Origin: Escherichia phage T7
Strand: one strand, 5' to 3'
Sequence record: PV223882
Length of the DNA stretch: 38,432 nucleotides
The notes beneath the pieces are model-generated. The model saw only the letters and a program-made list of their open reading frames with translations, was not told where the DNA came from and did not search any database. Shown in pieces: positions 15,310 through 38,272 of this stretch. A program made the position numbers and the translations under genes. Numbering within the stretch: the first letter of the stretch is position 1; each line of letters begins with the position of its first letter.

Positions 15310-15710
15310 TGTCTGAGTTCACATGTGTGGAGGCTAAGAGTCGCTTCCGTGCAATCCGGTGGACTGTGGAACACCTTGGGTTGCCTAAAGGATTCGAAGG
15401 ACACTTTGTGGGCTACAGCCTCTACGTAGACGAAGTGATGGACATGTCTGGTTGCCGTGAAGAGTACATTCTGGACTCTACCGGAAAACATGTAGCGTAC
15501 TTCGCGTGGTGCGTAAGCTGTGACATTCACCACAAAGGAGACATTCTGGATGTAACGTCCGTTGTCATTAATCCTGAGGCAGACTCTAAGGGCTTACAGC
15601 GATTCCTAGCGAAACGCTTTAAGTACCTTGCGGAACTCCACGATTGCGATTGGGTGTCTCGTTGTAAGCATGAAGGCGAGACAATGCGTGTATACTTTAA
15701 GGAGGTATAA
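15309..15710 (+). CDS. 7: Gp7 (host-range / virion assembly)
   Basis: 133-aa ORF MSEFTCVEAKSRFRAIRWTVEHLG... Confidence 0.9.
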   Translation: MSEFTCVEAKSRFRAIRWTVEHLGLPKGFEGHFVGYSLYVDEVMDMSGCREEYILDSTGKHVAYFAWCVSCDIHHKGDILDVTSVVINPEADSKGLQRFLAKRFKYLAELHDCDWVSRCKHEGETMRVYFKEV

Positions 15711-15713
15711 GTT

Positions 15714-16013
15714 ATGGGTAAGAAAGTTAAGAAGGCCGTGAAGAAAGTCACCAAGTCCGTTAAGAAAGTCGTTAAGGAAGGGGCTCGTCCGGTTAAACAG
15801 GTTGCTGGCGGTCTAGCTGGTCTGGCTGGTGGTACTGGTGAAGCACAGATGGTGGAAGCACCACAAGCTGCCGCACAGATTGTTGACGTACCTGAGAAAG
15901 AGGTTTCCACTGAGGACGAAGCACAGACAGAAAGCGGACGCAAGAAAGCTCGTGCTGGCGGTAAGAAATCCTTGAGTGTAGCCCGTAGCTCCGGTGGCGG
16001 TATCAACATTTAA
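15714..16013 (+). CDS. 7.3: Gp7.3 tail-associated protein
   Basis: 99-aa lysine-rich ORF MGKKVKKAVKKVTKSVKKVVKEGARP... Confidence 0.92.
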   Translation: MGKKVKKAVKKVTKSVKKVVKEGARPVKQVAGGLAGLAGGTGEAQMVEAPQAAAQIVDVPEKEVSTEDEAQTESGRKKARAGGKKSLSVARSSGGGINI

Positions 16014-16026
16014 TCAGGAGGTTATC

Positions 16027-16290
16027 GTGGAAGACTGCATTGAATGGACCGGAGGTGTCAACTCTAAGGGTTATGGTCGTAAGTGGGTTAATGGTAAACT
16101 TGTGACTCCACATAGGCACATCTATGAGGAGACATATGGTCCAGTTCCAACAGGAATTGTGGTGATGCATATCTGCGATAACCCTAGGTGCTATAACATA
16201 AAGCACCTTACGCTTGGAACTCCAAAGGATAATTCCGAGGACATGGTTACCAAAGGTAGACAGGCTAAAGGAGAGGAACTAAGCAAGTAA
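16027..16290 (+). pseudogene. 7.7: Gene 7.7 (HNH endonuclease-like), truncated by the LysK cassette insertion
   Basis: GTG-start ORF with HNH motif HICDNPRCYNIKHL ends at ...GEELSK; the stop codon is supplied by the first TAA of the inserted promoter. Confidence 0.8.
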
Positions 16291-16310
16291 TACGACTCAC
16301 TATAGGCCTC
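16288..16310 (+). promoter_or_regulatory. Inserted T7 promoter (pET-style, lac operator absent) driving the LysK cassette
   Basis: taatacgactcactatagg followed by cctctagaaataattttgtttaactttaagaaggagatatacatATG; leader and RBS identical to the native gene 10 leader. Confidence 0.9.
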
Positions 16311-16350
16311 TAGAAATAATTTTGTTTAACTTTAAGAAGGAGATATACAT

Positions 16351-17874
16351 ATGGGCAGCAGCCATCATCATCATCATCACAGCAGCGGCGCTAAGACTCA
16401 AGCAGAAATAAATAAACGTTTAGACGCTTATGCAAAAGGTACAGTAGACAGTCCTTATAGAATTAAAAAAGCTACAAGCTATGACCCATCGTTTGGTGTA
16501 ATGGAAGCAGGAGCAATTGACGCAGATGGTTACTATCATGCACAGTGCCAAGACTTAATTACTGATTATGTATTATGGTTAACAGATAATAAAGTTAGAA
16601 CTTGGGGTAATGCTAAAGACCAAATCAAACAAAGTTATGGTACTGGATTTAAAATACATGAAAATAAACCTTCTACAGTACCTAAAAAAGGATGGATTGC
16701 TGTATTTACATCCGGTAGTTATCAGCAATGGGGTCACATAGGTATTGTATATGATGGAGGTAATACTTCTACATTTACTATTTTAGAGCAAAACTGGAAC
16801 GGTTACGCTAATAAAAAACCTACAAAACGTGTAGATAATTATTACGGATTAACTCATTTTATTGAGATACCTGTAAAAGCAGGAACTACTGTTAAAAAAG
16901 AAACAGCTAAGAAAAGTGCAAGTAAAACACCTGCACCTAAAAAGAAAGCAACACTAAAAGTTTCTAAGAACCATATTAACTATACAATGGATAAACGTGG
17001 TAAGAAACCTGAAGGAATGGTAATACACAACGATGCAGGTCGTTCTTCAGGGCAACAATACGAGAATTCATTAGCTAACGCAGGTTATGCTAGATATGCT
17101 AATGGTATTGCTCATTACTATGGCTCTGAAGGTTATGTATGGGAAGCAATAGATGCTAAGAATCAAATTGCTTGGCACACAGGAGATGGAACAGGAGCAA
17201 ACTCAGGTAACTTTAGATTTGCAGGTATTGAAGTCTGTCAATCAATGAGTGCTAGTGATGCTCAATTCCTTAAAAACGAACAAGCAGTATTCCAATTTAC
17301 TGCAGAGAAATTTAAAGAATGGGGTCTTACTCCTAATCGTAAAACTGTAAGATTGCATATGGAATTTGTTCCAACAGCTTGTCCTCATCGTTCTATGGTT
17401 CTTCATACAGGATTTAATCCAGTAACACAAGGAAGACCATCTCAAGCAATAATGAATAAACTAAAAGATTATTTCATTAAACAAATTAAAAACTACATGG
17501 ATAAAGGAACTTCAAGTTCTACAGTAGTTAAAGACGGTAAAACAAGTAGCGCAAGTACACCGGCAACTAGACCAGTAACAGGCTCTTGGAAAAAGAACCA
17601 GTACGGAACTTGGTACAAACCGGAAAATGCAACATTTGTTAATGGTAACCAACCTATAGTAACTAGAATAGGTTCTCCATTCTTAAATGCTCCAGTAGGA
17701 GGTAACTTACCGGCAGGAGCTACAATTGTATATGACGAAGTTTGTATCCAAGCAGGTCACATTTGGATAGGTTACAATGCTTACAATGGTGACAGAGTAT
17801 ATTGCCCTGTTAGAACTTGTCAAGGAGTTCCACCTAATCATATACCTGGGGTTGCCTGGGGAGTATTCAAATAG
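16351..17874 (+). CDS. lysK: Heterologous N-terminally His6-tagged staphylococcal phage endolysin (LysK of phage K; CHAP, amidase_2 and SH3b domains)
   Basis: [13 protein letters not shown] tag then [33 protein letters not shown]... recognised as LysK; CHAP Cys in ...YHAQCQDL; AT-rich native codons. Confidence 0.88.
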
Positions 17875-17905
17875 TACTACAGCGTAAGACATGGAGACAC
17901 ATTTA

Positions 17906-19516
17906 ATGGCTGAGAAACGAACAGGACTTGCGGAGGATGGCGCAAAGTCTGTCTATGAGCGTTTAAAGAACGACCGTGCTCCCTATGAGACACGCGCTCA
18001 GAATTGCGCTCAATATACCATCCCATCATTGTTCCCTAAGGACTCCGATAACGCCTCTACAGATTATCAAACTCCGTGGCAAGCCGTGGGCGCTCGTGGT
18101 CTGAACAATCTAGCCTCTAAGCTCATGCTGGCTCTATTCCCTATGCAGACTTGGATGCGACTTACTATATCTGAATATGAAGCAAAGCAGTTACTGAGCG
18201 ACCCCGATGGACTCGCTAAGGTCGATGAGGGCCTCTCGATGGTAGAGCGTATCATCATGAACTACATTGAGTCTAACAGTTACCGCGTGACTCTCTTTGA
18301 GGCTCTCAAACAGTTAGTCGTAGCTGGTAACGTCCTGCTGTACCTACCGGAACCGGAAGGGTCAAACTATAATCCCATGAAGCTGTACCGATTGTCTTCT
18401 TATGTGGTCCAACGAGACGCATTCGGCAACGTTCTGCAAATGGTGACTCGTGACCAGATAGCTTTTGGTGCTCTCCCTGAGGACATCCGTAAGGCTGTAG
18501 AAGGTCAAGGTGGTGAGAAGAAAGCTGATGAGACAATCGACGTGTACACTCACATCTATCTGGATGAGGACTCAGGTGAATACCTCCGATACGAAGAGGT
18601 CGAGGGTATGGAAGTCCAAGGCTCCGATGGGACTTATCCTAAAGAGGCTTGCCCATACATCCCGATTCGGATGGTCAGACTAGATGGTGAATCCTACGGT
18701 CGTTCGTACATTGAGGAATACTTAGGTGACTTACGGTCCCTTGAAAATCTCCAAGAGGCTATCGTCAAGATGTCCATGATTAGCTCTAAGGTTATCGGCT
18801 TAGTGAATCCTGCTGGTATCACCCAGCCACGCCGACTGACCAAAGCTCAGACTGGTGACTTCGTTACTGGTCGTCCAGAAGACATCTCGTTCCTCCAACT
18901 GGAGAAGCAAGCAGACTTTACTGTAGCTAAAGCCGTAAGTGACGCTATCGAGGCTCGCCTTTCGTTTGCCTTTATGTTGAACTCTGCGGTTCAGCGTACA
19001 GGTGAACGTGTGACCGCCGAAGAGATTCGGTATGTAGCTTCTGAACTTGAAGATACTTTAGGTGGTGTCTACTCTATCCTTTCTCAAGAATTACAATTGC
19101 CTCTGGTACGAGTGCTCTTGAAGCAACTACAAGCCACGCAACAGATTCCTGAGTTACCTAAGGAAGCCGTAGAGCCAACCATTAGTACAGGTCTGGAAGC
19201 AATTGGTCGAGGACAAGACCTTGATAAGCTGGAGCGGTGTGTCACTGCGTGGGCTGCACTGGCACCTATGCGGGACGACCCTGATATTAACCTTGCGATG
19301 ATTAAGTTACGTATTGCCAACGCTATCGGTATTGACACTTCTGGTATTCTACTCACCGAAGAACAGAAGCAACAGAAGATGGCCCAACAGTCTATGCAAA
19401 TGGGTATGGATAATGGTGCTGCTGCGCTGGCTCAAGGTATGGCTGCACAAGCTACAGCTTCACCTGAGGCTATGGCTGCTGCCGCTGATTCCGTAGGTTT
19501 ACAGCCGGGAATTTAA
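17906..19516 (+). CDS. 8: Head-tail connector (portal) protein gp8
   Basis: 536-aa ORF MAEKRTGLAEDGAKSVYERL...; native upstream sequence retained. Confidence 0.97.
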   Translation: MAEKRTGLAEDGAKSVYERLKNDRAPYETRAQNCAQYTIPSLFPKDSDNASTDYQTPWQAVGARGLNNLASKLMLALFPMQTWMRLTISEYEAKQLLSDPDGLAKVDEGLSMVERIIMNYIESNSYRVTLFEALKQLVVAGNVLLYLPEPEGSNYNPMKLYRLSSYVVQRDAFGNVLQMVTRDQIAFGALPEDIRKAVEGQGGEKKADETIDVYTHIYLDEDSGEYLRYEEVEGMEVQGSDGTYPKEACPYIPIRMVRLDGESYGRSYIEEYLGDLRSLENLQEAIVKMSMISSKVIGLVNPAGITQPRRLTKAQTGDFVTGRPEDISFLQLEKQADFTVAKAVSDAIEARLSFAFMLNSAVQRTGERVTAEEIRYVASELEDTLGGVYSILSQELQLPLVRVLLKQLQATQQIPELPKEAVEPTISTGLEAIGRGQDLDKLERCVTAWAALAPMRDDPDINLAMIKLRIANAIGIDTSGILLTEEQKQQKMAQQSMQMGMDNGAAALAQGMAAQATASPEAMAAAADSVGLQPGI

Positions 19517-19536
19517 TACGACTCACTATAGGGAGA
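19514..19536 (+). promoter_or_regulatory. T7 class III promoter phi9
   Basis: taatacgactcactatagggaga. Confidence 0.9.
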
Positions 19537-19615
19537 CCTCATCTTTGAAATGAGCGATGACAAGAGGTTGGAGTCCTCGGTCTTCCTGTAGTTCAACTTT
19601 AAGGAGACAATAATA

Positions 19616-20539
19616 ATGGCTGAATCTAATGCAGACGTATATGCATCTTTTGGCGTGAACTCCGCTGTGATGTCTGGTGGTTCCGTTGAGGAACATGAGC
19701 AGAACATGCTGGCTCTTGATGTTGCTGCCCGTGATGGCGATGATGCAATCGAGTTAGCGTCAGACGAAGTGGAAACAGAACGTGACCTGTATGACAACTC
19801 TGACCCGTTCGGTCAAGAGGATGACGAAGGCCGCATTCAGGTTCGTATCGGTGATGGCTCTGAGCCGACCGATGTGGACACTGGAGAAGAAGGCGTTGAG
19901 GGCACCGAAGGTTCCGAAGAGTTTACCCCACTGGGCGAGACTCCAGAAGAACTGGTAGCTGCCTCTGAGCAACTTGGTGAGCACGAAGAGGGCTTCCAAG
20001 AGATGATTAACATTGCTGCTGAGCGTGGCATGAGTGTCGAGACCATTGAGGCTATCCAGCGTGAGTACGAGGAGAACGAAGAGTTGTCCGCCGAGTCCTA
20101 CGCTAAGCTGGCTGAAATTGGCTACACGAAGGCTTTCATTGACTCGTATATCCGTGGTCAAGAAGCTCTGGTGGAGCAGTACGTAAACAGTGTCATTGAG
20201 TACGCTGGTGGTCGTGAACGTTTTGATGCACTGTATAACCACCTTGAGACGCACAACCCTGAGGCTGCACAGTCGCTGGATAATGCGTTGACCAATCGTG
20301 ACTTAGCGACCGTTAAGGCTATCATCAACTTGGCTGGTGAGTCTCGCGCTAAGGCGTTCGGTCGTAAGCCAACTCGTAGTGTGACTAATCGTGCTATTCC
20401 GGCTAAACCTCAGGCTACCAAGCGTGAAGGCTTTGCGGACAGTAGCGAGATGATTAAAGCTATGAGTGACCCTCGGTATCGCACAGATGCCAACTATCGT
20501 CGTCAAGTCGAACAGAAAGTAATCGATTCGAACTTCTGA
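19616..20539 (+). CDS. 9: Capsid assembly (scaffolding) protein gp9
   Basis: 307-aa acidic ORF MAESNADVYASFGVNSAVMSGG... Confidence 0.96.
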   Translation: MAESNADVYASFGVNSAVMSGGSVEEHEQNMLALDVAARDGDDAIELASDEVETERDLYDNSDPFGQEDDEGRIQVRIGDGSEPTDVDTGEEGVEGTEGSEEFTPLGETPEELVAASEQLGEHEEGFQEMINIAAERGMSVETIEAIQREYEENEELSAESYAKLAEIGYTKAFIDSYIRGQEALVEQYVNSVIEYAGGRERFDALYNHLETHNPEAAQSLDNALTNRDLATVKAIINLAGESRAKAFGRKPTRSVTNRAIPAKPQATKREGFADSSEMIKAMSDPRYRTDANYRRQVEQKVIDSNF

Positions 20540-20552
20540 TAGACTTCGAAAT

Positions 20553-20575
20553 TAATACGACTCACTATAGGGAGA
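20553..20575 (+). promoter_or_regulatory. T7 class III promoter phi10 with native gene 10 leader
   Basis: taatacgactcactatagggagaccacaacggtttccctctagaaataattttgtttaactttaagaaggagatatacatATG. Confidence 0.95.
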
Positions 20576-20632
20576 CCACAACGGTTTCCCTCTAGAAATA
20601 ATTTTGTTTAACTTTAAGAAGGAGATATACAT

Positions 20633-21670
20633 ATGGCTAGCATGACTGGTGGACAGCAAATGGGTACTAACCAAGGTAAAGGTGTAGTTGCTGCTGGAGA
20701 TAAACTGGCGTTGTTCTTGAAGGTATTTGGCGGTGAAGTCCTGACTGCGTTCGCTCGTACCTCCGTGACCACTTCTCGCCACATGGTACGTTCCATCTCC
20801 AGCGGTAAATCCGCTCAGTTCCCTGTTCTGGGTCGCACTCAGGCAGCGTATCTGGCTCCGGGCGAGAACCTCGACGATAAACGTAAGGACATCAAACACA
20901 CCGAGAAGGTAATCACCATTGACGGTCTCCTGACGGCTGACGTTCTGATTTATGATATTGAGGACGCGATGAACCACTACGACGTTCGCTCTGAGTATAC
21001 CTCTCAGTTGGGTGAATCTCTGGCGATGGCTGCGGATGGTGCGGTTCTGGCTGAGATTGCCGGTCTGTGTAACGTGGAAAGCAAATATAATGAGAACATC
21101 GAGGGCTTAGGTACTGCTACCGTAATTGAGACCACTCAGAACAAGGCCGCACTTACCGACCAAGTTGCGCTGGGTAAGGAGATTATTGCGGCTCTGACTA
21201 AGGCTCGTGCGGCTCTGACCAAGAACTATGTTCCGGCTGCTGACCGTGTGTTCTACTGTGACCCAGATAGCTACTCTGCGATTCTGGCAGCACTGATGCC
21301 GAACGCAGCAAACTACGCTGCTCTGATTGACCCTGAGAAGGGTTCTATCCGCAACGTTATGGGCTTTGAGGTTGTAGAAGTTCCGCACCTCACCGCTGGT
21401 GGTGCTGGTACCGCTCGTGAGGGCACTACTGGTCAGAAGCACGTCTTCCCTGCCAATAAAGGTGAGGGTAATGTCAAGGTTGCTAAGGACAACGTTATCG
21501 GCCTGTTCATGCACCGCTCTGCGGTAGGTACTGTTAAGCTGCGTGACTTGGCTCTGGAGCGCGCTCGCCGTGCTAACTTCCAAGCGGACCAGATTATCGC
21601 TAAGTACGCAATGGGCCACGGTGGTCTTCGCCCAGAAGCTGCTGGTGCAGTGGTTTTCAAAGTGGAGTAA
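20633..21670 (+). CDS. 10A: Major capsid protein gp10A
   Basis: 345-aa ORF MASMTGGQQMG... (T7-tag N-terminus) ending ...AVVFKVE*. Confidence 0.98.
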   Translation: MASMTGGQQMGTNQGKGVVAAGDKLALFLKVFGGEVLTAFARTSVTTSRHMVRSISSGKSAQFPVLGRTQAAYLAPGENLDDKRKDIKHTEKVITIDGLLTADVLIYDIEDAMNHYDVRSEYTSQLGESLAMAADGAVLAEIAGLCNVESKYNENIEGLGTATVIETTQNKAALTDQVALGKEIIAALTKARAALTKNYVPAADRVFYCDPDSYSAILAALMPNAANYAALIDPEKGSIRNVMGFEVVEVPHLTAGGAGTAREGTTGQKHVFPANKGEGNVKVAKDNVIGLFMHRSAVGTVKLRDLALERARRANFQADQIIAKYAMGHGGLRPEAAGAVVFKVE

Positions 21671-21693
21671 TAATACGACTCACTATAGGCCTC
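21671..21693 (+). promoter_or_regulatory. Inserted T7 promoter (pET-style, no lac operator) driving the second lysin cassette
   Basis: Identical to the 16288 element: taatacgactcactataggcctctagaaataattttgtttaactttaagaaggagatatacat. Confidence 0.9.
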
Positions 21694-21733
21694 TAGAAAT
21701 AATTTTGTTTAACTTTAAGAAGGAGATATACAT

Positions 21734-22498
21734 ATGACAACAGTAAATGAAGCATTAAATAATGTAAGAGCTCAGGTTGGGTCCGGTGTGTCTGTTGGCA
21801 ACGGCGAATGCTACGCTTTGGCTAGTTGGTACGAGCGCATGATTAGTCCGGATGCAACTGTCGGACTTGGCGCTGGTGTGGGCTGGGTCAGCGGTGCAAT
21901 CGGCGATACAATCTCTGCCAAAAACATCGGCTCATCATACAACTGGCAAGCTAACGGCTGGACAGTTTCCACATCTGGTCCATTTAAAGCAGGTCAGATT
22001 GTGACGCTTGGGGCAACACCAGGAAACCCTTACGGACATGTGGTAATCGTCGAAGCAGTGGACGGCGATAGATTGACTATTTTGGAGCAAAACTACGGCG
22101 GGAAACGTTATCCCGTCCGTAATTATTACAGCGCTGCAAGCTATCGTCAACAGGTCGTGCATTACATCACACCGCCTGGCACGGTCGCACAGTCAGCACC
22201 CAACCTTGCAGGCTCTCGTTCCTATCGCGAGACGGGCACTATGACTGTCACGGTCGATGCTCTCAATGTTCGCAGGGCGCCAAATACTTCAGGCGAGATT
22301 GTAGCAGTATACAAGCGTGGTGAATCATTTGACTATGATACTGTCATCATCGATGTCAATGGCTATGTCTGGGTGTCTTACATAGGCGGCAGCGGCAAAC
22401 GTAACTACGTTGCGACGGGCGCTACCAAAGACGGTAAGCGTTTCGGCAATGCTTGGGGTACATTTAAAGGCAGCAGCCATCATCATCATCATCACTAG
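21734..22498 (+). CDS. plySs2: Heterologous C-terminally His6-tagged CHAP-SH3b streptococcal lysin (PlySs2-like)
   Basis: MTTVNEALNNVRAQVGSGVSVGNGECYALASWYERMISPD... recognised as PlySs2 from S. suis; ends ...[13 protein letters not shown]. Confidence 0.8.
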   Translation: MTTVNEALNNVRAQVGSGVSVGNGECYALASWYERMISPDATVGLGAGVGWVSGAIGDTISAKNIGSSYNWQANGWTVSTSGPFKAGQIVTLGATPGNPYGHVVIVEAVDGDRLTILEQNYGGKRYPVRNYYSAASYRQQVVHYITPPGTVAQSAPNLAGSRSYRETGTMTVTVDALNVRRAPNTSGEIVAVYKRGESFDYDTVIIDVNGYVWVSYIGGSGKRNYVATGATKDGKRFGNAWGTFKGSSHHHHHH

Positions 22499-22656
22499 CT
22501 GCTGGGGGTGGCCTCAACGGTCGCTGCTAGTCCCGAAGAGGCGAGTGTTACTTCAACAGAAGAAACCTTAACGCCAGCACAGAAGGCCGCACGCACCCGC
22601 GCTGCTAACAAAGCCCGAAAGGAAGCTGAGTTGACTGCTGCCACCGCTGAGCAATA
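22499..22656 (+). other. Untranslated remnant of the gene 10B C-terminal extension region
   Basis: Sequence that in wild-type T7 encodes the frameshift-dependent 10B tail now lies downstream of the cassette stop. Confidence 0.75.
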
Positions 22657-22704
22657 ACTAGCATAACCCCTTGGGGCCTCTAAACGGGTCTTGAGGGGTT
22701 TTTT
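22657..22704 (+). terminator. T7 RNAP terminator Tphi
   Basis: ctagcataaccccttggggcctctaaacgggtcttgaggggttttttg. Confidence 0.95.
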
Positions 22705-22722
22705 GCTGAAAGGAGGAACTAT

Positions 22723-23313
22723 ATGCGCTCATGCGATATGAACGTTGAGACTGCCGCTGAGTTATCAGCTGTGAACGACATTCTGGCGTCTATCGGTGAA
22801 CCTCCGGTATCAACGCTGGAAGGTGACGCTAACGCAGATGTAGCGAACGCTCGGCGTATTCTCAACAAGATTAACCGACAGATTCAATCTCGTGGATGGA
22901 CGTTCAACATTGAGGAAGGCATAACGCTACTACCTGATGTTTACTCCAACCTGATTGTATACAGTGACGACTATTTATCCCTAATGTCTACTTCCGGTCA
23001 ATCCATCTACGTTAACCGAGGTGGCTATGTGTATGACCGAACGAGTCAATCAGACCGCTTTGACTCTGGTATTACTGTGAACATTATTCGTCTCCGCGAC
23101 TACGATGAGATGCCTGAGTGCTTCCGTTACTGGATTGTCACCAAGGCTTCCCGTCAGTTCAACAACCGATTCTTTGGGGCACCGGAAGTAGAGGGTGTAC
23201 TCCAAGAAGAGGAAGATGAGGCTAGACGTCTCTGCATGGAGTATGAGATGGACTACGGTGGGTACAATATGCTGGATGGAGATGCGTTCACTTCTGGTCT
23301 ACTGACTCGCTAA
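22723..23313 (+). CDS. 11: Tail tubular protein A gp11
   Basis: 196-aa ORF in T7 order after Tphi. Confidence 0.95.
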
Positions 23314-23336
23314 CATTAATAAATAAGGAGGCTCTA

Positions 23337-25721
23337 ATGGCACTCATTAGCCAATCAATCAAGAACTTGAAGGGTGGTATCAGCCAACAGCCTGACATCC
23401 TTCGTTATCCAGACCAAGGGTCACGCCAAGTTAACGGTTGGTCTTCGGAGACCGAGGGCCTCCAAAAGCGTCCACCTCTTGTTTTCTTAAATACACTTGG
23501 AGACAACGGTGCGTTAGGTCAAGCTCCGTACATCCACCTGATTAACCGAGATGAGCACGAACAGTATTACGCTGTGTTCACTGGTAGCGGAATCCGAGTG
23601 TTCGACCTTTCTGGTAACGAGAAGCAAGTTAGGTATCCTAACGGTTCCAACTACATCAAGACCGCTAATCCACGTAACGACCTGCGAATGGTTACTGTAG
23701 CAGACTATACGTTCATCGTTAACCGTAACGTTGTTGCACAGAAGAACACAAAGTCTGTCAACTTACCGAATTACAACCCTAATCAAGACGGATTGATTAA
23801 CGTTCGTGGTGGTCAGTATGGTAGGGAACTAATTGTACACATTAACGGTAAAGACGTTGCGAAGTATAAGATACCAGATGGTAGTCAACCTGAACACGTA
23901 AACAATACGGATGCCCAATGGTTAGCTGAAGAGTTAGCCAAGCAGATGCGCACTAACTTGTCTGATTGGACTGTAAATGTAGGGCAAGGGTTCATCCATG
24001 TGACCGCACCTAGTGGTCAACAGATTGACTCCTTCACGACTAAAGATGGCTACGCAGACCAGTTGATTAACCCTGTGACCCACTACGCTCAGTCGTTCTC
24101 TAAGCTGCCACCTAATGCTCCTAACGGCTACATGGTGAAAATCGTAGGGGACGCCTCTAAGTCTGCCGACCAGTATTACGTTCGGTATGACGCTGAGCGG
24201 AAAGTTTGGACTGAGACTTTAGGTTGGAACACTGAGGACCAAGTTCTATGGGAAACCATGCCACACGCTCTTGTGCGAGCCGCTGACGGTAATTTCGACT
24301 TCAAGTGGCTTGAGTGGTCTCCTAAGTCTTGTGGTGACGTTGACACCAACCCTTGGCCTTCTTTTGTTGGTTCAAGTATTAACGATGTGTTCTTCTTCCG
24401 TAACCGCTTAGGATTCCTTAGTGGGGAGAACATCATATTGAGTCGTACAGCCAAATACTTCAACTTCTACCCTGCGTCCATTGCGAACCTTAGTGATGAC
24501 GACCCTATAGACGTAGCTGTGAGTACCAACCGAATAGCAATCCTTAAGTACGCCGTTCCGTTCTCAGAAGAGTTACTCATCTGGTCCGATGAAGCACAAT
24601 TCGTCCTGACTGCCTCGGGTACTCTCACATCTAAGTCGGTTGAGTTGAACCTAACGACCCAGTTTGACGTACAGGACCGAGCGAGACCTTTTGGGATTGG
24701 GCGTAATGTCTACTTTGCTAGTCCGAGGTCCAGCTTCACGTCCATCCACAGGTACTACGCTGTGCAGGATGTCAGTTCCGTTAAGAATGCTGAGGACATT
24801 ACATCACACGTTCCTAACTACATCCCTAATGGTGTGTTCAGTATTTGCGGAAGTGGTACGGAAAACTTCTGTTCGGTACTATCTCACGGGGACCCTAGTA
24901 AAATCTTCATGTACAAATTCCTGTACCTGAACGAAGAGTTAAGGCAACAGTCGTGGTCTCATTGGGACTTTGGGGAAAACGTACAGGTTCTAGCTTGTCA
25001 GAGTATCAGCTCAGATATGTATGTGATTCTTCGCAATGAGTTCAATACGTTCCTAGCTAGAATCTCTTTCACTAAGAACGCCATTGACTTACAGGGAGAA
25101 CCCTATCGTGCCTTTATGGACATGAAGATTCGATACACGATTCCTAGTGGAACATACAACGATGACACATTCACTACCTCTATTCATATTCCAACAATTT
25201 ATGGTGCAAACTTCGGGAGGGGCAAAATCACTGTATTGGAGCCTGATGGTAAGATAACCGTGTTTGAGCAACCTACGGCTGGGTGGAATAGCGACCCTTG
25301 GCTGAGACTCAGCGGTAACTTGGAGGGACGCATGGTGTACATTGGGTTCAACATTAACTTCGTATATGAGTTCTCTAAGTTCCTCATCAAGCAGACTGCC
25401 GACGACGGGTCTACCTCCACGGAAGACATTGGGCGCTTACAGTTACGCCGAGCGTGGGTTAACTACGAGAACTCTGGTACGTTTGACATTTATGTTGAGA
25501 ACCAATCGTCTAACTGGAAGTACACAATGACTGGTGCCCGATTAGGCTCTAACACTCTGAGGGCTGGGAGACTGAACTTAGGGACCGGACAATATCGATT
25601 CCCTGTGGTTGGTAACGCCAAGTTCAACACTGTATACATCTTGTCAGATGAGACTACCCCTCTGAACATCATTGGGTGTGGCTGGGAAGGTAACTACTTA
25701 CGGAGAAGTTCCGGTATTTAA
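23337..25721 (+). CDS. 12: Tail tubular protein B gp12
   Basis: 794-aa ORF MALISQSIKNLKGGISQQPDILRYPDQG... Confidence 0.96.
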   Translation: MALISQSIKNLKGGISQQPDILRYPDQGSRQVNGWSSETEGLQKRPPLVFLNTLGDNGALGQAPYIHLINRDEHEQYYAVFTGSGIRVFDLSGNEKQVRYPNGSNYIKTANPRNDLRMVTVADYTFIVNRNVVAQKNTKSVNLPNYNPNQDGLINVRGGQYGRELIVHINGKDVAKYKIPDGSQPEHVNNTDAQWLAEELAKQMRTNLSDWTVNVGQGFIHVTAPSGQQIDSFTTKDGYADQLINPVTHYAQSFSKLPPNAPNGYMVKIVGDASKSADQYYVRYDAERKVWTETLGWNTEDQVLWETMPHALVRAADGNFDFKWLEWSPKSCGDVDTNPWPSFVGSSINDVFFFRNRLGFLSGENIILSRTAKYFNFYPASIANLSDDDPIDVAVSTNRIAILKYAVPFSEELLIWSDEAQFVLTASGTLTSKSVELNLTTQFDVQDRARPFGIGRNVYFASPRSSFTSIHRYYAVQDVSSVKNAEDITSHVPNYIPNGVFSICGSGTENFCSVLSHGDPSKIFMYKFLYLNEELRQQSWSHWDFGENVQVLACQSISSDMYVILRNEFNTFLARISFTKNAIDLQGEPYRAFMDMKIRYTIPSGTYNDDTFTTSIHIPTIYGANFGRGKITVLEPDGKITVFEQPTAGWNSDPWLRLSGNLEGRMVYIGFNINFVYEFSKFLIKQTADDGSTSTEDIGRLQLRRAWVNYENSGTFDIYVENQSSNWKYTMTGARLGSNTLRAGRLNLGTGQYRFPVVGNAKFNTVYILSDETTPLNIIGCGWEGNYLRRSSGI

Positions 25722-25751
25722 TTAAATATTCTCCCTGTGGTGGCTCGAAAT

Positions 25752-25774
25752 TAATACGACTCACTATAGGGAGA
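25752..25774 (+). promoter_or_regulatory. T7 class III promoter phi13
   Basis: taatacgactcactatagggagaac. Confidence 0.9.
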
Positions 25775-25801
25775 ACAATACGACTACGGGAGGGTTTTCT
25801 T

Positions 25802-26218
25802 ATGATGACTATAAGACCTACTAAAAGTACAGACTTTGAGGTATTCACTCCGGCTCACCATGACATTCTTGAAGCTAAGGCTGCTGGTATTGAGCCGAGT
25901 TTCCCTGATGCTTCCGAGTGTGTCACGTTGAGCCTCTATGGGTTCCCTCTAGCTATCGGTGGTAACTGCGGGGACCAGTGCTGGTTCGTTACGAGCGACC
26001 AAGTGTGGCGACTTAGTGGAAAGGCTAAGCGAAAGTTCCGTAAGTTAATCATGGAGTATCGCGATAAGATGCTTGAGAAGTATGATACTCTTTGGAATTA
26101 CGTATGGGTAGGCAATACGTCCCACATTCGTTTCCTCAAGACTATCGGTGCGGTATTCCATGAAGAGTACACACGAGATGGTCAATTTCAGTTATTTACA
26201 ATCACGAAAGGAGGATAA
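25802..26218 (+). CDS. 13: Internal virion protein A gp13
   Basis: 138-aa ORF MMTIRPTKSTDFEVFTPAHHD... Confidence 0.93.
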   Translation: MMTIRPTKSTDFEVFTPAHHDILEAKAAGIEPSFPDASECVTLSLYGFPLAIGGNCGDQCWFVTSDQVWRLSGKAKRKFRKLIMEYRDKMLEKYDTLWNYVWVGNTSHIRFLKTIGAVFHEEYTRDGQFQLFTITKGG

Positions 26219-26222
26219 CCAT

Positions 26223-26813
26223 ATGTGTTGGGCAGCCGCAATACCTATCGCTATATCTGGCGCTCAGGCTATCAGTGATCAGAACGCTCAGGCCAAAATG
26301 ATTGCCGCTCAGACCGCTGCTGGTCGTCGTCAAGCTATGGAAATCATGAGGCAGACGAACATCCAGAATGCTGACCTATCGTTGTCAGCTCGAAGTAAAC
26401 TTGAGGAAGCGTCCGCCGAGTTGACCTCACAGAACATGCAGAAGGTCCAAGCTATTGGGTCTATCCGAGCGGCTATCGGAGAGAGTATGCTTGAAGGTTC
26501 CTCAATGGACCGCATTAAGCGAGTCACAGAAGGACAGTTCATTCGGGAAGCCAATATGGTAACTGAGAACTATCGCCGTGACTACCAAGCAATCTTCGCA
26601 CAGCAACTTGGTGGTACTCAAAGTGCTGCAAGTCAGATTGACGAAATCTATAAGAGCGAACAGAAACAGAAGAGTAAGCTACAGATGGTTCTGGACCCAC
26701 TGGCTATCATGGGGTCTTCCGCTGCGAGTGCTTACGCATCCGGTGCGTTCGACTCTAAGTCCACAACTAAGGCACCTATTGTTGCCGCTAAAGGAACCAA
26801 GACGGGGAGGTAA
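26223..26813 (+). CDS. 14: Internal core protein gp14
   Basis: 196-aa ORF MCWAAAIPIAISGAQAISDQNAQ...; internal start of the listed ORF. Confidence 0.92.
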   Translation: MCWAAAIPIAISGAQAISDQNAQAKMIAAQTAAGRRQAMEIMRQTNIQNADLSLSARSKLEEASAELTSQNMQKVQAIGSIRAAIGESMLEGSSMDRIKRVTEGQFIREANMVTENYRRDYQAIFAQQLGGTQSAASQIDEIYKSEQKQKSKLQMVLDPLAIMGSSAASAYASGAFDSKSTTKAPIVAAKGTKTGR

Positions 26814-26819
26814 TGAGCT

Positions 26820-29063
26820 ATGAGTAAAATTGAATCTGCCCTTCAAGCGGCACAACCGGGACTCTCTCGGTTACGTGGTGGTGCTGGAGGTATGGGCTAT
26901 CGTGCAGCAACCACTCAGGCCGAACAGCCAAGGTCAAGCCTATTGGACACCATTGGTCGGTTCGCTAAGGCTGGTGCCGATATGTATACCGCTAAGGAAC
27001 AACGAGCACGAGACCTAGCTGATGAACGCTCTAACGAGATTATCCGTAAGCTGACCCCTGAGCAACGTCGAGAAGCTCTCAACAACGGGACCCTTCTGTA
27101 TCAGGATGACCCATACGCTATGGAAGCACTCCGAGTCAAGACTGGTCGTAACGCTGCGTATCTTGTGGACGATGACGTTATGCAGAAGATAAAAGAGGGT
27201 GTCTTCCGTACTCGCGAAGAGATGGAAGAGTATCGCCATAGTCGCCTTCAAGAGGGCGCTAAGGTATACGCTGAGCAGTTCGGCATCGACCCTGAGGACG
27301 TTGATTATCAGCGTGGTTTCAACGGGGACATTACCGAGCGTAACATCTCGCTGTATGGTGCGCATGATAACTTCTTGAGCCAGCAAGCTCAGAAGGGCGC
27401 TATCATGAACAGCCGAGTGGAACTCAACGGTGTCCTTCAAGACCCTGATATGCTGCGTCGTCCAGACTCTGCTGACTTCTTTGAGAAGTATATCGACAAC
27501 GGTCTGGTTACTGGCGCAATCCCATCTGATGCTCAAGCCACACAGCTTATAAGCCAAGCGTTCAGTGACGCTTCTAGCCGTGCTGGTGGTGCTGACTTCC
27601 TGATGCGAGTCGGTGACAAGAAGGTAACACTTAACGGAGCCACTACGACTTACCGAGAGTTGATTGGTGAGGAACAGTGGAACGCTCTCATGGTCACAGC
27701 ACAACGTTCTCAGTTTGAGACTGACGCGAAGCTGAACGAGCAGTATCGCTTGGAGATTAACTCTGCGCTGAACCAAGAGGACCCAAGGACAGCTTGGGAG
27801 ATGCTTCAAGGTATCAAGGCTGAACTAGATAAGGTCCAACCTGATGAGCAGATGACACCACAACGTGAGTGGCTAATCTCCGCACAGGAACAAGTTCAGA
27901 ATCAGATGAACGCATGGACGAAAGCTCAGGCCAAGGCTCTGGACGATTCCATGAAGTCAATGAACAAACTTGACGTAATCGACAAGCAATTCCAGAAGCG
28001 AATCAACGGTGAGTGGGTCTCAACGGATTTTAAGGATATGCCAGTCAACGAGAACACTGGTGAGTTCAAGCATAGCGATATGGTTAACTACGCCAATAAG
28101 AAGCTCGCTGAGATTGACAGTATGGACATTCCAGACGGTGCCAAGGATGCTATGAAGTTGAAGTACCTTCAAGCGGACTCTAAGGACGGAGCATTCCGTA
28201 CAGCCATCGGAACCATGGTCACTGACGCTGGTCAAGAGTGGTCTGCCGCTGTGATTAACGGTAAGTTACCAGAACGAACCCCAGCTATGGATGCTCTGCG
28301 CAGAATCCGCAATGCTGACCCTCAGTTGATTGCTGCGCTATACCCAGACCAAGCTGAGCTATTCCTGACGATGGACATGATGGACAAGCAGGGTATTGAC
28401 CCTCAGGTTATTCTTGATGCCGACCGACTGACTGTTAAGCGGTCCAAAGAGCAACGCTTTGAGGATGATAAAGCATTCGAGTCTGCACTGAATGCATCTA
28501 AGGCTCCTGAGATTGCCCGTATGCCAGCGTCACTGCGCGAATCTGCACGTAAGATTTATGACTCCGTTAAGTATCGCTCGGGGAACGAAAGCATGGCTAT
28601 GGAGCAGATGACCAAGTTCCTTAAGGAATCTACCTACACGTTCACTGGTGATGATGTTGACGGTGATACCGTTGGTGTGATTCCTAAGAATATGATGCAG
28701 GTTAACTCTGACCCGAAATCATGGGAGCAAGGTCGGGATATTCTGGAGGAAGCACGTAAGGGAATCATTGCGAGCAACCCTTGGATAACCAATAAGCAAC
28801 TGACCATGTATTCTCAAGGTGACTCCATTTACCTTATGGACACCACAGGTCAAGTCAGAGTCCGATACGACAAAGAGTTACTCTCGAAGGTCTGGAGTGA
28901 GAACCAGAAGAAACTCGAAGAGAAAGCTCGTGAGAAGGCTCTGGCTGATGTGAACAAGCGAGCACCTATAGTTGCCGCTACGAAGGCCCGTGAAGCTGCT
29001 GCTAAACGAGTCCGAGAGAAACGTAAACAGACTCCTAAGTTCATCTACGGACGTAAGGAGTAA
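26820..29063 (+). CDS. 15: Internal core protein gp15
   Basis: 747-aa ORF MSKIESALQAAQPGLSRLRGG... Confidence 0.96.
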   Translation: MSKIESALQAAQPGLSRLRGGAGGMGYRAATTQAEQPRSSLLDTIGRFAKAGADMYTAKEQRARDLADERSNEIIRKLTPEQRREALNNGTLLYQDDPYAMEALRVKTGRNAAYLVDDDVMQKIKEGVFRTREEMEEYRHSRLQEGAKVYAEQFGIDPEDVDYQRGFNGDITERNISLYGAHDNFLSQQAQKGAIMNSRVELNGVLQDPDMLRRPDSADFFEKYIDNGLVTGAIPSDAQATQLISQAFSDASSRAGGADFLMRVGDKKVTLNGATTTYRELIGEEQWNALMVTAQRSQFETDAKLNEQYRLEINSALNQEDPRTAWEMLQGIKAELDKVQPDEQMTPQREWLISAQEQVQNQMNAWTKAQAKALDDSMKSMNKLDVIDKQFQKRINGEWVSTDFKDMPVNENTGEFKHSDMVNYANKKLAEIDSMDIPDGAKDAMKLKYLQADSKDGAFRTAIGTMVTDAGQEWSAAVINGKLPERTPAMDALRRIRNADPQLIAALYPDQAELFLTMDMMDKQGIDPQVILDADRLTVKRSKEQRFEDDKAFESALNASKAPEIARMPASLRESARKIYDSVKYRSGNESMAMEQMTKFLKESTYTFTGDDVDGDTVGVIPKNMMQVNSDPKSWEQGRDILEEARKGIIASNPWITNKQLTMYSQGDSIYLMDTTGQVRVRYDKELLSKVWSENQKKLEEKAREKALADVNKRAPIVAATKAREAAAKRVREKRKQTPKFIYGRKE

Positions 29064-29089
29064 CTAAAGGCTACATAAGGAGGCCCTAA

Positions 29090-32000
29090 ATGGATAAGTA
29101 CGATAAGAACGTACCAAGTGATTATGATGGTCTGTTCCAAAAGGCTGCTGATGCCAACGGGGTCTCTTATGACCTTTTACGTAAAGTCGCTTGGACAGAA
29201 TCACGATTTGTGCCTACAGCAAAATCTAAGACTGGACCATTAGGCATGATGCAATTTACCAAGGCAACCGCTAAGGCCCTCGGTCTGCGAGTTACCGATG
29301 GTCCAGACGACGACCGACTGAACCCTGAGTTAGCTATTAATGCTGCCGCTAAGCAACTTGCAGGTCTGGTAGGGAAGTTTGATGGCGATGAACTCAAAGC
29401 TGCCCTTGCGTACAACCAAGGCGAGGGACGCTTGGGTAATCCACAACTTGAGGCGTACTCTAAGGGAGACTTCGCATCAATCTCTGAGGAGGGACGTAAC
29501 TACATGCGTAACCTTCTGGATGTTGCTAAGTCACCTATGGCTGGACAGTTGGAAACTTTTGGTGGCATAACCCCAAAGGGTAAAGGCATTCCGGCTGAGG
29601 TAGGATTGGCTGGAATTGGTCACAAGCAGAAAGTAACACAGGAACTTCCTGAGTCCACAAGTTTTGACGTTAAGGGTATCGAACAGGAGGCTACGGCGAA
29701 ACCATTCGCCAAGGACTTTTGGGAGACCCACGGAGAAACACTTGACGAGTACAACAGTCGTTCAACCTTCTTCGGATTCAAAAATGCTGCCGAAGCTGAA
29801 CTCTCCAACTCAGTCGCTGGGATGGCTTTCCGTGCTGGTCGTCTCGATAATGGTTTTGATGTGTTTAAAGACACCATTACGCCGACTCGCTGGAACTCTC
29901 ACATCTGGACTCCAGAGGAGTTAGAGAAGATTCGAACAGAGGTTAAGAACCCTGCGTACATCAACGTTGTAACTGGTGGTTCCCCTGAGAACCTCGATGA
30001 CCTCATTAAATTGGCTAACGAGAACTTTGAGAATGACTCCCGCGCTGCCGAGGCTGGCCTAGGTGCCAAACTGAGTGCTGGTATTATTGGTGCTGGTGTG
30101 GACCCGCTTAGCTATGTTCCTATGGTCGGTGTCACTGGTAAGGGCTTTAAGTTAATCAATAAGGCTCTTGTAGTTGGTGCCGAAAGTGCTGCTCTGAACG
30201 TTGCATCCGAAGGTCTCCGTACCTCCGTAGCTGGTGGTGACGCAGACTATGCGGGTGCTGCCTTAGGTGGCTTTGTGTTTGGCGCTGGCATGTCTGCAAT
30301 CAGTGACGCTGTAGCTGCTGGACTGAAACGCAGTAAACCAGAAGCTGAGTTCGACAATGAGTTCATCGGTCCTATGATGCGATTGGAAGCCCGTGAGACA
30401 GCACGAAACGCCAACTCTGCGGACCTCTCTCGGATGAACACTGAGAACATGAAGTTTGAAGGTGAACATAATGGTGTCCCTTATGAGGACTTACCAACAG
30501 AGAGAGGTGCCGTGGTGTTACATGATGGCTCCGTTCTAAGTGCAAGCAACCCAATCAACCCTAAGACTCTAAAAGAGTTCTCCGAGGTTGACCCTGAGAA
30601 GGCTGCGCGAGGAATCAAACTGGCTGGGTTCACCGAGATTGGCTTGAAGACCTTGGGGTCTGACGATGCTGACATCCGTAGAGTGGCTATCGACCTCGTT
30701 CGCTCTCCTACTGGTATGCAGTCTGGTGCCTCAGGTAAGTTCGGTGCAACAGCTTCTGACATCCATGAGAGACTTCATGGTACTGACCAGCGTACTTATA
30801 ATGACTTGTACAAAGCAATGTCTGACGCTATGAAAGACCCTGAGTTCTCTACTGGCGGCGCTAAGATGTCCCGTGAAGAAACTCGATACACTATCTACCG
30901 TAGAGCGGCACTAGCTATTGAGCGTCCAGAACTACAGAAGGCACTCACTCCGTCTGAGAGAATCGTTATGGACATCATTAAGCGTCACTTTGACACCAAG
31001 CGTGAACTTATGGAAAACCCAGCAATATTCGGTAACACAAAGGCTGTGAGTATCTTCCCTGAGAGTCGCCACAAAGGTACTTACGTTCCTCACGTATATG
31101 ACCGTCATGCCAAGGCGCTGATGATTCAACGCTACGGTGCCGAAGGTTTGCAGGAAGGGATTGCCCGCTCATGGATGAACAGCTACGTCTCCAGACCTGA
31201 GGTCAAGGCCAGAGTCGATGAGATGCTTAAGGAATTACACGGGGTGAAGGAAGTAACACCAGAGATGGTAGAGAAGTACGCTATGGATAAGGCTTATGGT
31301 ATCTCCCACTCAGACCAGTTCACCAACAGTTCCATAATAGAAGAGAACATTGAGGGCTTAGTAGGTATCGAGAATAACTCATTCCTTGAGGCACGTAACT
31401 TGTTTGATTCGGACCTATCCATCACTATGCCAGACGGACAGCAATTCTCAGTGAATGACCTAAGGGACTTCGATATGTTCCGCATCATGCCAGCGTATGA
31501 CCGCCGTGTCAATGGTGACATCGCCATCATGGGGTCTACTGGTAAAACCACTAAGGAACTTAAGGATGAGATTTTGGCTCTCAAAGCGAAAGCTGAGGGA
31601 GACGGTAAGAAGACTGGCGAGGTACATGCTTTAATGGATACCGTTAAGATTCTTACTGGTCGTGCTAGACGCAATCAGGACACTGTGTGGGAAACCTCAC
31701 TGCGTGCCATCAATGACCTAGGGTTCTTCGCTAAGAACGCCTACATGGGTGCTCAGAACATTACGGAGATTGCTGGGATGATTGTCACTGGTAACGTTCG
31801 TGCTCTAGGGCATGGTATCCCAATTCTGCGTGATACACTCTACAAGTCTAAACCAGTTTCAGCTAAGGAACTCAAGGAACTCCATGCGTCTCTGTTCGGG
31901 AAGGAGGTGGACCAGTTGATTCGGCCTAAACGTGCTGACATTGTGCAGCGCCTAAGGGAAGCAACTGATACCGGACCTGCCGTGGCGAACATCGTAGGGA

Positions 32001-33046: not shown

Positions 33047-33066
33047 TACGACTCACTATAGGGAGA
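33044..33066 (+). promoter_or_regulatory. T7 class III promoter phi17
   Basis: taatacgactcactatagggagagg. Confidence 0.9.
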
Positions 33067-33118
33067 GGCGAAATAATCTTCTCCCTGTAGTCTCTTAGAT
33101 TTACTTTAAGGAGGTCAA

Positions 33119-34780: not shown

Positions 34781-34838
34781 TTGGTAAATCACAAGGAAAG
34801 ACGTGTAGTCCACGGATGGACTCTCAAGGAGGTACAAG

Positions 34839-35042: not shown

Positions 35043-35047
35043 TATGT

Positions 35048-38265: not shown

Positions 38266-38272
38266 GTGACTA

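Follow-up and report, generated by a model that had tools for sequence, protein, structure and literature searches.

A reduced-genome T7 coliphage carrying two His-tagged endolysin genes, apparently built to release them against Gram-positive bystanders at lysis

The window, that is, the whole 38,432-bp stretch of DNA analysed here, carries two foreign blocks in a T7 background. The first (16288-17874; 1,587 bp) comprises a T7 promoter, a pET/gene-10 leader, and a gene for His6-LysGH15 placed in a truncated gene 7.7. The second (21671-22499; 829 bp) has the same promoter and leader followed by a gene for "LyJDSS3"-His6, and is located between the gene 10A stop codon and the Tphi terminator. 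No foreign DNA beyond these two blocks was found in the whole window by comparison with T7 and the sister records, and the span between the cassettes (17875-21670) is ordinary T7 sequence with genes 8, 9, and 10A and the promoters phi9 and phi10. The features on which the following account depends are:

1-38432, + strand: apparently the complete genome of phage T7-B-GJ, chassis plus two inserts (identity with sister records; Table S1 of PMC12153263)
1690-4341, + strand: gene 1, T7 RNA polymerase, which would read the inserted promoters; amino-acid-identical to V01146
8533-8988, + strand: gene 3.5, T7 lysozyme (amidase); identical to V01146
16027-16290, + strand: truncated gene 7.7, 87 codons, ending at a new TAA stop that the inserted promoter provides with its initial three bases
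16288-16306, + strand: first inserted T7 promoter, -17 to +2, with +1 at 16305; 19/23 matches to the class III consensus
16307-16350, + strand: 5' leader of pET/gene-10 type with an XbaI site and the Shine-Dalgarno AAGGAG at 16337-16342, 8 nt before the ATG
16351-17874, + strand: His6-LysGH15 coding sequence, 507 codons (Pfam domains, nucleotide and protein identity)
17875-17905, + strand: retained 3' end of gene 7.7, including the ribosome-binding region native to gene 8; lysGH15 and gene 8 are not separated by a terminator
17906-21670, + strand: native genes 8 (17906-19516), 9 (19616-20539), and 10A (20633-21670), with promoters phi9 at 19514 and phi10 at 20553
21671-21689, + strand: second inserted T7 promoter, with the sequence of the first, abutting the stop codon of gene 10A
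21690-21733, + strand: second copy of the leader, Shine-Dalgarno AAGGAG at 21720-21725
21734-22498, + strand: "LyJDSS3"-His6 coding sequence, assigned to PlySs2, 254 codons (Pfam, nucleotide and protein identity)
22500-22657, + strand: displaced 3' remnant specific to gene 10B, unjoined from gene 10
22665-22706, + strand: T7 terminator Tphi, a 15-bp stem and U run (-25.1 kcal/mol, z = -3.4), matching in position the Tphi annotated in V01146
34839-35042, + strand: gene 17.5, holin; identical to V01146
35412-35843, + strand: gene 18.5 with gene 18.7 embedded in it at 35527-35778, encoding Rz/Rz1-like spanins; identical to V01146

Comparison with database records indicates that the window appears to be the complete genome of the synthetic coliphage T7-B-GJ, which is listed as PV223882 in Table S1 of Zhang et al. 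(mBio 2025; PMC12153263). That the bases agree with those of PV223882 was inferred from two sister records with one insert each, which together match every base of the window: PV223881 (T7-B-G), which is 100% identical to positions 1-21671 and 22500-38432, and PV223883 (T7-B-J), which is 100% identical to positions 17873-25087. The lengths agree as well, with the T7-B chassis of 36,016 bp and the inserts of 1,587 bp and 829 bp adding up to 38,432 bp, or 96.2% of the wild-type T7 length. Apart from the inserts, the window and PV223880 agree at every base, the one apparent mismatch falling where the alignment enters the first insert by a few bases. Alignment with V01146 by BLAST gave seven gaps corresponding to the seven chassis deletions, at genes 0.4-0.7, 1.4, 1.7, 3.8, 4.3-4.7, 5.3, and part of 7.7, and this pattern fits the T7-B description (PMC12153263); gene 19.5 is retained and intact. 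Of the 57 coding sequences listed, 31 are identical to wild type and 12 carry point substitutions only, and all replication and structural genes outside the intended deletions are full length. The chassis was reported to be viable with a burst size of 197, and T7-B-GJ was shown to be stable across 10 passages (PMC12153263).

The first cassette replaces part of gene 7.7, from which the chassis deletion removed wild-type positions 20109-20208. Over 47 nt its leader repeats the native gene 10 leader (20589-20635) without a mismatch. Position 16351 is the A of the ATG of the lysin reading frame; the N-terminal His tag region (16351-16389) is followed by LysGH15 residues 2-495. The protein contains CHAP, Amidase_2, and SH3_5 domains, all above the Pfam gathering cut-offs, and matches exactly ADG26756.1 / YP_007002194.1, named 'Endolysin LysGH15', for which domain structures are available (PDB 4olk, 4ols, and 2mk5). 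At the DNA level, 1485 of 1485 nucleotides are identical to HM015284 and to phage G15 (JQ686190). By these matches the origin of the gene is the staphylococcal phage GH15, and the architecture together with the identity to LysGH15 places the first payload among LysK/LysGH15-type endolysins. The codons are native and AT-rich (GC 37%, GC3 20%), and 8% of them are rare in E. coli, including 10 AGA and 11 ATA; this staphylococcal codon usage could limit the yield.

In the second cassette, the reading frame encodes a 245-aa lysin followed by GSSHHHHHH (22469-22495) and a TAG codon whose last base is position 22498. The interval 16351-22498, to which the preliminary description had assigned its interpretation, thus runs exactly from the first lysin's ATG to the end of the second lysin's TAG, with the first inserted promoter (16288-16306) lying just outside its start. 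The "LyJDSS3" protein has CHAP and SH3_5 domains and is about 92% identical to PDB 5d74. An exact-sequence look-up returned AGF87539.1, 'PlySs2 family phage lysin [Streptococcus suis]', a record that has been equated with PlySs2 (PMC7558826), and the CHAP + SH3b architecture is that of the PlySs2 family. Moreover, the gene matches the lysin gene of the S. suis 89/1591 prophage phi891591 (KC348602) at 735 of 735 nucleotides, which makes it essentially certain, on alignment, that "LyJDSS3" is PlySs2 of an S. suis prophage, base for base. The GenBank note on PV223883 gives a Streptococcus agalactiae phage as the source, but no S. agalactiae phage match was found in the phage collection searched; all matches of at least 90% identity came from S. 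suis hosts, and the named members of the 90% cluster are all S. suis. In the paper, S. agalactiae is the assay target and not a demonstrable lysin source (PMC12153263). The PlySs2 identity sets right the origin named in that note. The GC content of the gene (51%) is near that of T7 and had raised the suspicion of codon optimization, which is ruled out by the 735/735 identity to the S. suis prophage gene. PlySs2 is also called CF-301 and is the clinical candidate exebacase. This identity alone would explain the reported cross-killing of S. aureus by T7-B-J, and it accounts for activity on both S. agalactiae and S. aureus.

Both lysin genes are preceded by a common 63-nt element consisting of TAATACGACTCACTATAGG (T7 promoter, -17 to +2) and CCTCTAGAAATAATTTTGTTTAACTTTAAGAAGGAGATATACAT, followed by ATG, so that the element and the start codon form a 66-nt direct repeat. 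The exact 19-mer promoter occurs at 16288 and 21671, with zero matches in 100 shuffled sequences, and gene 1 is wild-type; these observations bear out the earlier reading of T7 RNA polymerase promoters in front of the lysin genes. Compared with the 23-bp class III consensus TAATACGACTCACTATAGGGAGA (-17 to +6), both inserted promoters match at 19 of 23 positions, being exact from -17 to +2 and having CCTC instead of GAGA at +3 to +6. The recognition and melting region is complete and the initially transcribed sequence is non-consensus, and the inserted promoters may be weaker than the native late promoters. The added promoters would not be the sole source of transcription, native class III promoters also lying upstream of both genes (phi6.5 for lysGH15, phi9 and phi10 for the second lysin). 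With such a departure at +3 to +6, read-through may be as important as transcription from the added promoters; the relative share of added and native promoters in lysin transcription is something that we infer. Scans of positions 15500-23500 revealed nothing beyond chance among sigma-70 promoter-like sites (11 versus 10.5 expected) and, except for Tphi, among intrinsic terminators (7 versus 5.7 expected). Tphi, which is downstream of the second lysin only, closes the phi9/phi10/inserted-promoter transcription unit, in which the second lysin is now included. Within this region, genes 8 and 10A show no change from wild type; gene 9 carries R276S.

Neither lysin contains a signal-peptide-like or transmembrane stretch by Kyte-Doolittle hydropathy. 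The maximum 19-residue means were 0.89 (LysGH15) and 1.05 ("LyJDSS3"), and the maximum 10-residue means in the first 50 residues were -0.17 and 1.04, respectively, with no hydrophobic N-terminus in either protein. The expectation that the lysins lack signal peptides therefore holds, on hydropathy and knowledge of canonical holin-dependent endolysins, which we take both proteins to be, rather than on a dedicated predictor. The native lysis machinery invoked in the preliminary description was likewise found in place, genes 3.5, 17.5, 18.5, and 18.7 all being identical to V01146. The anatomy of the construct, the identity of each part, and the intactness of the lysis and polymerase genes can be regarded as established from the sequence.

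Based on these features, the following course of events is proposed. After infection of E. coli, the gene 1 polymerase would transcribe the late region, including lysGH15, served by its added promoter (16288) as well as read-through from phi6.5, and the PlySs2 gene, served within the gene 10-Tphi unit by its added promoter (21671) together with read-through from phi9 and phi10. Both lysin messages would carry the strong gene-10 ribosome-binding site, and, because there is no export signal, both lysins would accumulate in the cytoplasm before lysis. The unaltered T7 holin, lysozyme, and spanins would then burst the cell and release the lysins; outside, the SH3b domains would bind exposed staphylococcal or streptococcal peptidoglycan, and the CHAP and amidase domains would cut it, resulting in lysis of bystander bacteria. 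The His tags would permit Ni-affinity recovery and detection.

The published work is in agreement with this proposal. Zhang et al. state the same design intent as the preliminary description, in almost identical terms, so that its proposal of a two-lysin coliphage is supported, and they present the construct as a model of how polymicrobial communities can be targeted (PMC12153263). They placed a 1.6-kb PT7-lysGH15 cassette at gp7.7 and a 0.8-kb PT7-lyJDSS3 cassette at gp10, tagging LysGH15 at the N terminus and LyJDSS3 at the C terminus; both His tags are read directly in the window. These two loci were selected to receive the lysins, and a PT7-driven luciferase reporter gave its highest signal at gp10 (PMC12153263). 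The loci, tags, and promoters fit the window, with no difference from the published construct detected against the sister records and the description in the paper. Lysin expression was demonstrated by Ni-IDA purification from cleared lysate, which gave His-tagged bands at the expected sizes on SDS-PAGE; the chassis control lacked these bands (PMC12153263). This agrees with the suggested use of the tags for purification or detection. Co-culture turbidity assays demonstrated that S. aureus ATCC 25923 and S. agalactiae ATCC 13813 were both cleared (PMC12153263), as anticipated for attack on staphylococci and streptococci; turbidity alone cannot separate growth inhibition from killing. Each lysin was also active on the target species of the other, indicating that the target specificity is loose (PMC12153263). 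We found no contradicting evidence in the analysis, and we consider it almost certain that T7-B-GJ is a replication-competent reduced-genome T7 armed with two His-tagged endolysins that stay cytoplasmic and originate from Gram-positive phages. Both the observation and the design reading are already known, all of it having been described in the publication, and none of it is new.

The phage might instead be mainly a self-lysing vehicle for expression and purification, or a payload demonstration of the SMART method and the T7-B chassis, and not an antibacterial in itself. Both lysins are His-tagged and were purified from cleared lysate on Ni-IDA, the main subject of the paper is a genome-engineering method and the capacity of the chassis (PMC12153263), and the GenBank records name BL21(DE3) as the host. 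In contrast, the authors explicitly aim the construct at polymicrobial communities, and co-culture killing is their stated endpoint (PMC12153263). We consider this alternative improbable; it survives only as a matter of emphasis and complements the release of lysins against Gram-positive bystanders more than it competes with it.

Replacement or enhancement of host lysis by the foreign lysins is very unlikely. Both are peptidoglycan hydrolases expressed late in infection, and the MurNAc-L-Ala bond cut by Amidase_2 exists in E. coli peptidoglycan too, a point in favor of such a role. However, both contain SH3_5 wall-binding domains typical of staphylococcal and streptococcal wall targeting, and the paper tests them on Gram-positive bystanders (PMC12153263). 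Replacement of the T7 lysis system is ruled out by its four intact genes, which leave no T7 lysis function in need of replacement, and it is plausible, as expected earlier, that the lysins would be inactive on the producing E. coli cell from inside. The position of the second lysin directly after gene 10A, at a site used for 10B fusions (a use mentioned in PMC12153263), suggested T7Select-type capsid display. This has a negligible probability, and an in-frame fusion to gene 10 is refuted by the reading frames, since gene 10A ends in TAA, stops occur in all three frames between it and the lysin ATG, the -1 frame of 10B stops after 12 codons (QSGVIIRLTIGL*) in the inserted promoter/leader, and the lysin has its own promoter, Shine-Dalgarno, and ATG. 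Natural horizontal acquisition of the lysins is excluded by the His tags, the duplicated pET-type leader with its XbaI site, the engineered deletions with their seamless junctions, and the records in GenBank and the paper. The window is a man-made, published construct and not a natural phage with captured lysins of Gram-positive phages, and it is no evidence of natural gene transfer between coliphages and phages of Gram-positive bacteria.

Among the closest counterparts of T7-B-GJ are the heterologous effector phage therapeutics (HEPTs) of Du et al. (Nat Commun 2023; PMC10359290), of which the E. coli phage CM001::ec300 releases an Enterococcus-specific cell wall hydrolase. Like this phage, T7-B-GJ is a lytic coliphage in which a hydrolase directed at Gram-positive bacteria is made during infection and released at lysis. 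Bystanders are killed in co-culture by the HEPT (PMC10359290), and a fall in co-culture turbidity is reported for T7-B-GJ (PMC12153263). T7-B-GJ fits the HEPT-type design in having a lytic scaffold that can replicate and keeps its native lysis genes unaltered, heterologous effectors with a T7 promoter core and the gene-10 ribosome-binding site (seen as bands in PMC12153263), and effectors released by lysis rather than secreted, as indicated indirectly by hydropathy and by recovery from the lysate (PMC12153263). HEPT payloads are codon-optimized and rely on the phage late promoter only, with an added ribosome-binding site (PMC10359290), whereas those of T7-B-GJ have native codons and an added T7 promoter each; T7-B-GJ further differs in its two payloads at two loci, its His tags, and its deliberately genome-reduced chassis. 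The concept of a lytic phage that releases a lysin active on another genus was earlier established by the HEPTs in 2023. Apart from the tags, the payloads are 100% identical to recombinant LysK/LysGH15 and PlySs2 (CF-301, exebacase), but recombinant lysins are usually plasmid-made and applied purified, whereas those of T7-B-GJ are made in place by the infecting coliphage. The enzyme-armed, dispersin B-expressing T7 of Lu and Collins from 2007 is reportedly among the T7 phages with inserts between genes 10 and 11. This interval is the usual T7 reporter site (PMC12153263). Such phages share with T7-B-GJ a payload downstream of gene 10, expression by T7 RNA polymerase, and release at lysis; T7-B-GJ differs in carrying lysins for other phyla rather than a biofilm-degrading enzyme or reporter, and in using gene 7.7 as a second locus.

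Several unannotated by-products of the build were also observed. In the chassis, the Ocr protein (gp0.3) has acquired a C-terminal fusion and the phi1.5 promoter is clipped. At the second insertion site, 10B is shortened, the -1 frameshift tail of gene 10 being now 12 codons long and ending after QSGVIIRLTIGL, inside the inserted promoter/leader. Such collateral effects of the build are not taken up in the paper (PMC12153263). The Ocr fusion, the clipped phi1.5, and the shortened 10B might contribute to the reduced burst size of the chassis, although a measurable phenotypic consequence of any of these changes seems rather doubtful. For users of these records the practical point is that unannotated by-products of the deletions could affect the behavior of the chassis.

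By megablast against the phage collection, the window was 100% identical to PV223880, PV223881, and PV223883, which GenBank describes as "Mutant Escherichia phage T7 clone recombinant" and which originate from Zhang et al. (mBio 2025; PMC12153263). These records hold the chassis T7-B, a T7 with seven deletions, and its two single-insert derivatives.

Sister records and their matches to the window (local BLAST)
PV223880: T7-B, 36,016 bp
PV223881: T7-B-G, 37,603 bp; 100% match to window 1-21671 and 22500-38432
PV223883: T7-B-J, 36,845 bp; 100% match to window 17873-25087, second insert included

These matches, together with a window length equal to that of the chassis plus two inserts (36,016 + 1,587 + 829 bp), place both inserts on the T7-B chassis, and the 160-bp terminal repeat at each end means that the window is the whole genome. 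In the comparison with wild-type T7 (V01146), only 16288-17874 and 21671-22499 lacked a T7 counterpart. By way of PV223881 and PV223883, we infer that the window corresponds to the double construct T7-B-GJ, listed as PV223882 in Table S1 of the source paper (PMC12153263); it is a deposited engineered construct with a documented purpose, and as such is already known. In PV223881 and PV223880, the 160-bp terminal direct repeats are mislabelled 'cohesive-end site' and the 345-aa gene 10A product is mislabelled gp10B, and gene 18 of PV223880 is annotated as 'gp1.8'.

Features around the two inserts
14707: native late promoter phi6.5, upstream of insert 1
16351-17874: lysGH15 gene
19514 and 20553: native late promoters phi9 and phi10, upstream of insert 2
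21734-22498: LyJDSS3 coding sequence
22665-22700: stem-loop of the terminator Tphi
16288-16380, 20589-20635, 21671-21736, and 22469-22495: copies of direct repeats created by the build

The two tagged lysins noticed in the preliminary description were confirmed. Insert 1 lies in gene 7.7 at a 100-bp deletion and encodes a 13-residue His6 tag followed by LysGH15 residues 2-495, with CHAP, Amidase_2, and SH3_5 domains (Pfam), all three of which have solved structures (4olk, 4ols, 2mk5). Its DNA agrees with lysGH15 from staphylococcal phage G15/GH15 at 1485/1485 positions, and the protein minus the tag is an exact database entry, Endolysin LysGH15. Codon usage is staphylococcal (GC 37%, GC3 20%), with 8% E. 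coli-rare codons and counts of 10 AGA, 11 ATA, and 18 GGA; along the composition profile the gene stands out as a marked dip in GC (0.33-0.37 vs ~0.48-0.51 in the flanks). The stop codon of truncated gene 7.7 is a TAA supplied by the inserted promoter, the native 31 nt 5' of gene 8 are kept, and a terminator scan found none between lysGH15 and gene 8.

Insert 2, encoding a 245-aa CHAP + SH3_5 protein (Pfam) followed by GSSHHHHHH, sits directly 3' of the gene 10A stop and 5' of Tphi, and the second lysin is therefore within the phi9/phi10-to-Tphi unit, which is transcribed more heavily than any other in T7. This placement fits the finding that luciferase under PT7 was expressed most highly at the gp10 locus (PMC12153263). 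The gene 10B extension is severed by the insert (21646-21710; 22500-22657), such that the -1 frameshift product of gene 10 would end in QSGVIIRLTIGL; the wild-type tail has 53 residues. The former 10B 3' region (22500-22657) is a non-coding remnant ahead of Tphi, differing from V01146 at 22583 and 22634.

According to the GenBank note on PV223883, LyJDSS3 is "from a Streptococcus agalactiae phage". However, its coding sequence matches at 735/735 positions the lysin gene of phi891591, a prophage of S. suis 89/1591 (KC348602), and the protein has an exact database counterpart in AGF87539.1 ("PlySs2 family phage lysin [Streptococcus suis]"). Its close relatives in the collections searched are all from S. 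suis, with no S. agalactiae phage among the close matches. AGF87539.1 is PlySs2, with S. agalactiae listed among its known targets (PMC7558826), and is also called CF-301 (PMC3982849). These identities point to S. suis PlySs2 as the source, and the GenBank attribution needs correction accordingly. Inhibition of S. aureus by T7-B-J as well can be explained by this identity, since PlySs2 is known to have a broad spectrum that includes MRSA (Gilmer et al. 2013, cited in PMC7558826).

At the head of each foreign segment stands the 19-mer TAATACGACTCACTATAGG, which reproduces positions -17 to +2 of a T7 promoter exactly and had 14 matches in the window at ≤3 mismatches and 0 in 100 shuffles. The claim that T7 promoters drive the lysins was borne out as regards the promoters, with two qualifications: the added copies match the class III consensus at 19/23 positions (departures at +3 to +6), and both lysin genes have native late promoters upstream of them, so that read-through must contribute. 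The share of expression owed to the added promoters is one that we infer. The gene 1 product has the wild-type amino-acid sequence. In both inserts the promoter is followed by CCTCTAGAAATAATTTTGTTTAACTTTAAGAAGGAGATATACAT, a gene-10/pET leader in shortened form whose AAGGAG lies 8 nt upstream of the ATG. This promoter-leader-ATG unit is an exact 66-nt direct repeat in two copies, its last 47 nt also matching the native gene 10 leader; the two lysin genes further share 27 nt of His-tag sequence, GGCAGCAGCCATCATCATCATCATCAC, as a direct repeat. An essential gene (8, 9, or 10A) lies in every interval between copies, and therefore loss of a lysin by repeat recombination should be lethal, in agreement with the reported stability over 10 transfers (PMC12153263).

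The proposed purpose, a coliphage releasing Gram-positive lysins, is supported by the sequence checks and by experiments reported in PMC12153263. The first 50 residues of both proteins lack a hydrophobic stretch, consistent with the claimed lack of signal peptides (by hydropathy as a surrogate for a predictor run), and by the same measure no transmembrane-grade segment occurs anywhere in either. The lysins would thus build up in the cytoplasm before lysis, presumably leaving the producer cell unaffected. As anticipated, the native lysis system is retained, the products of genes 3.5, 17.5, 18.5, and 18.7 having the wild-type protein sequence. Expression and anti-Gram-positive activity, on which the interpretation could have failed, are both reported with favourable outcomes: Ni-affinity recovery gave SDS-PAGE bands of both proteins from T7-B-GJ lysate and none from T7-B, both Gram-positive species, S. 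aureus and S. agalactiae, were cleared in eight-hour co-culture turbidity assays, and each lysin also acts on the other species (PMC12153263). The authors state that the His tags serve purification or detection (PMC12153263). Viewing the phage as a vehicle for production or purification, or as a demonstration of the method, agrees with lysin release, the distinction being a matter of emphasis. Display of the second lysin on the capsid is excluded, as all three frames meet stops after gene 10A and before the ATG of the lysin, with the 10B frame closing after 12 codons. Replacement of T7 lysis by the foreign lysins is likewise excluded by the intact T7 lysis genes.

Lysin release by a coliphage predates T7-B-GJ as the concept of heterologous effector phage therapeutics, exemplified by an E. 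coli phage that, in co-culture, releases EC300, a hydrolase specific for Enterococcus (PMC10359290). T7-B-GJ differs in construction details: it carries two payloads, each at its own locus and with an added T7 promoter, keeps native codons where the earlier work optimised them, and has His tags and a genome-reduced chassis.

The chassis deletions left several by-products. The gene 0.3 (Ocr anti-restriction) ORF (925-1320) is altered by a ~1.48-kb deletion across genes 0.4 to 0.7, with its junction within a short GGAAGTCGAGGA microhomology; the final 6 residues (YEEDEE) are swapped for 20 out-of-frame residues of the gene 0.7 3' part, giving a 131-aa ORF, and PV223880 and PV223881 carry no annotated gp0.3 CDS. 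Promoter phi1.5 (6124-6146) lost its first four bases (-17 to -14) with the gene 1.4 deletion (wild-type 7609-7764) and is now mismatched at three positions, -16 to -14 (TTTAACGACTCACTAAAGGAGGT in the window vs TAATACGACTCACTAAAGGAGGT in wild type). The 4.3-4.7 deletion also takes phi4.3 and phi4.7, and 14 of the 17 wild-type T7 promoters are intact in the window. Beyond the engineered sites, substitutions relative to V01146 were found in genes 1.2 (Y59H), 2.8 (V33A), 5 (D197N), 7.3 (V49A), 9 (R276S), 12 (A732T), 14 (G19D/Q55S), 15 (K312E), 17 (T118A/K211E/R212Q), and 19 (Q14K), and gene 11 has one change within its first 30 nt. Since the T7-B chassis record has them too, these scattered substitutions stem from the laboratory stock rather than from the inserts.
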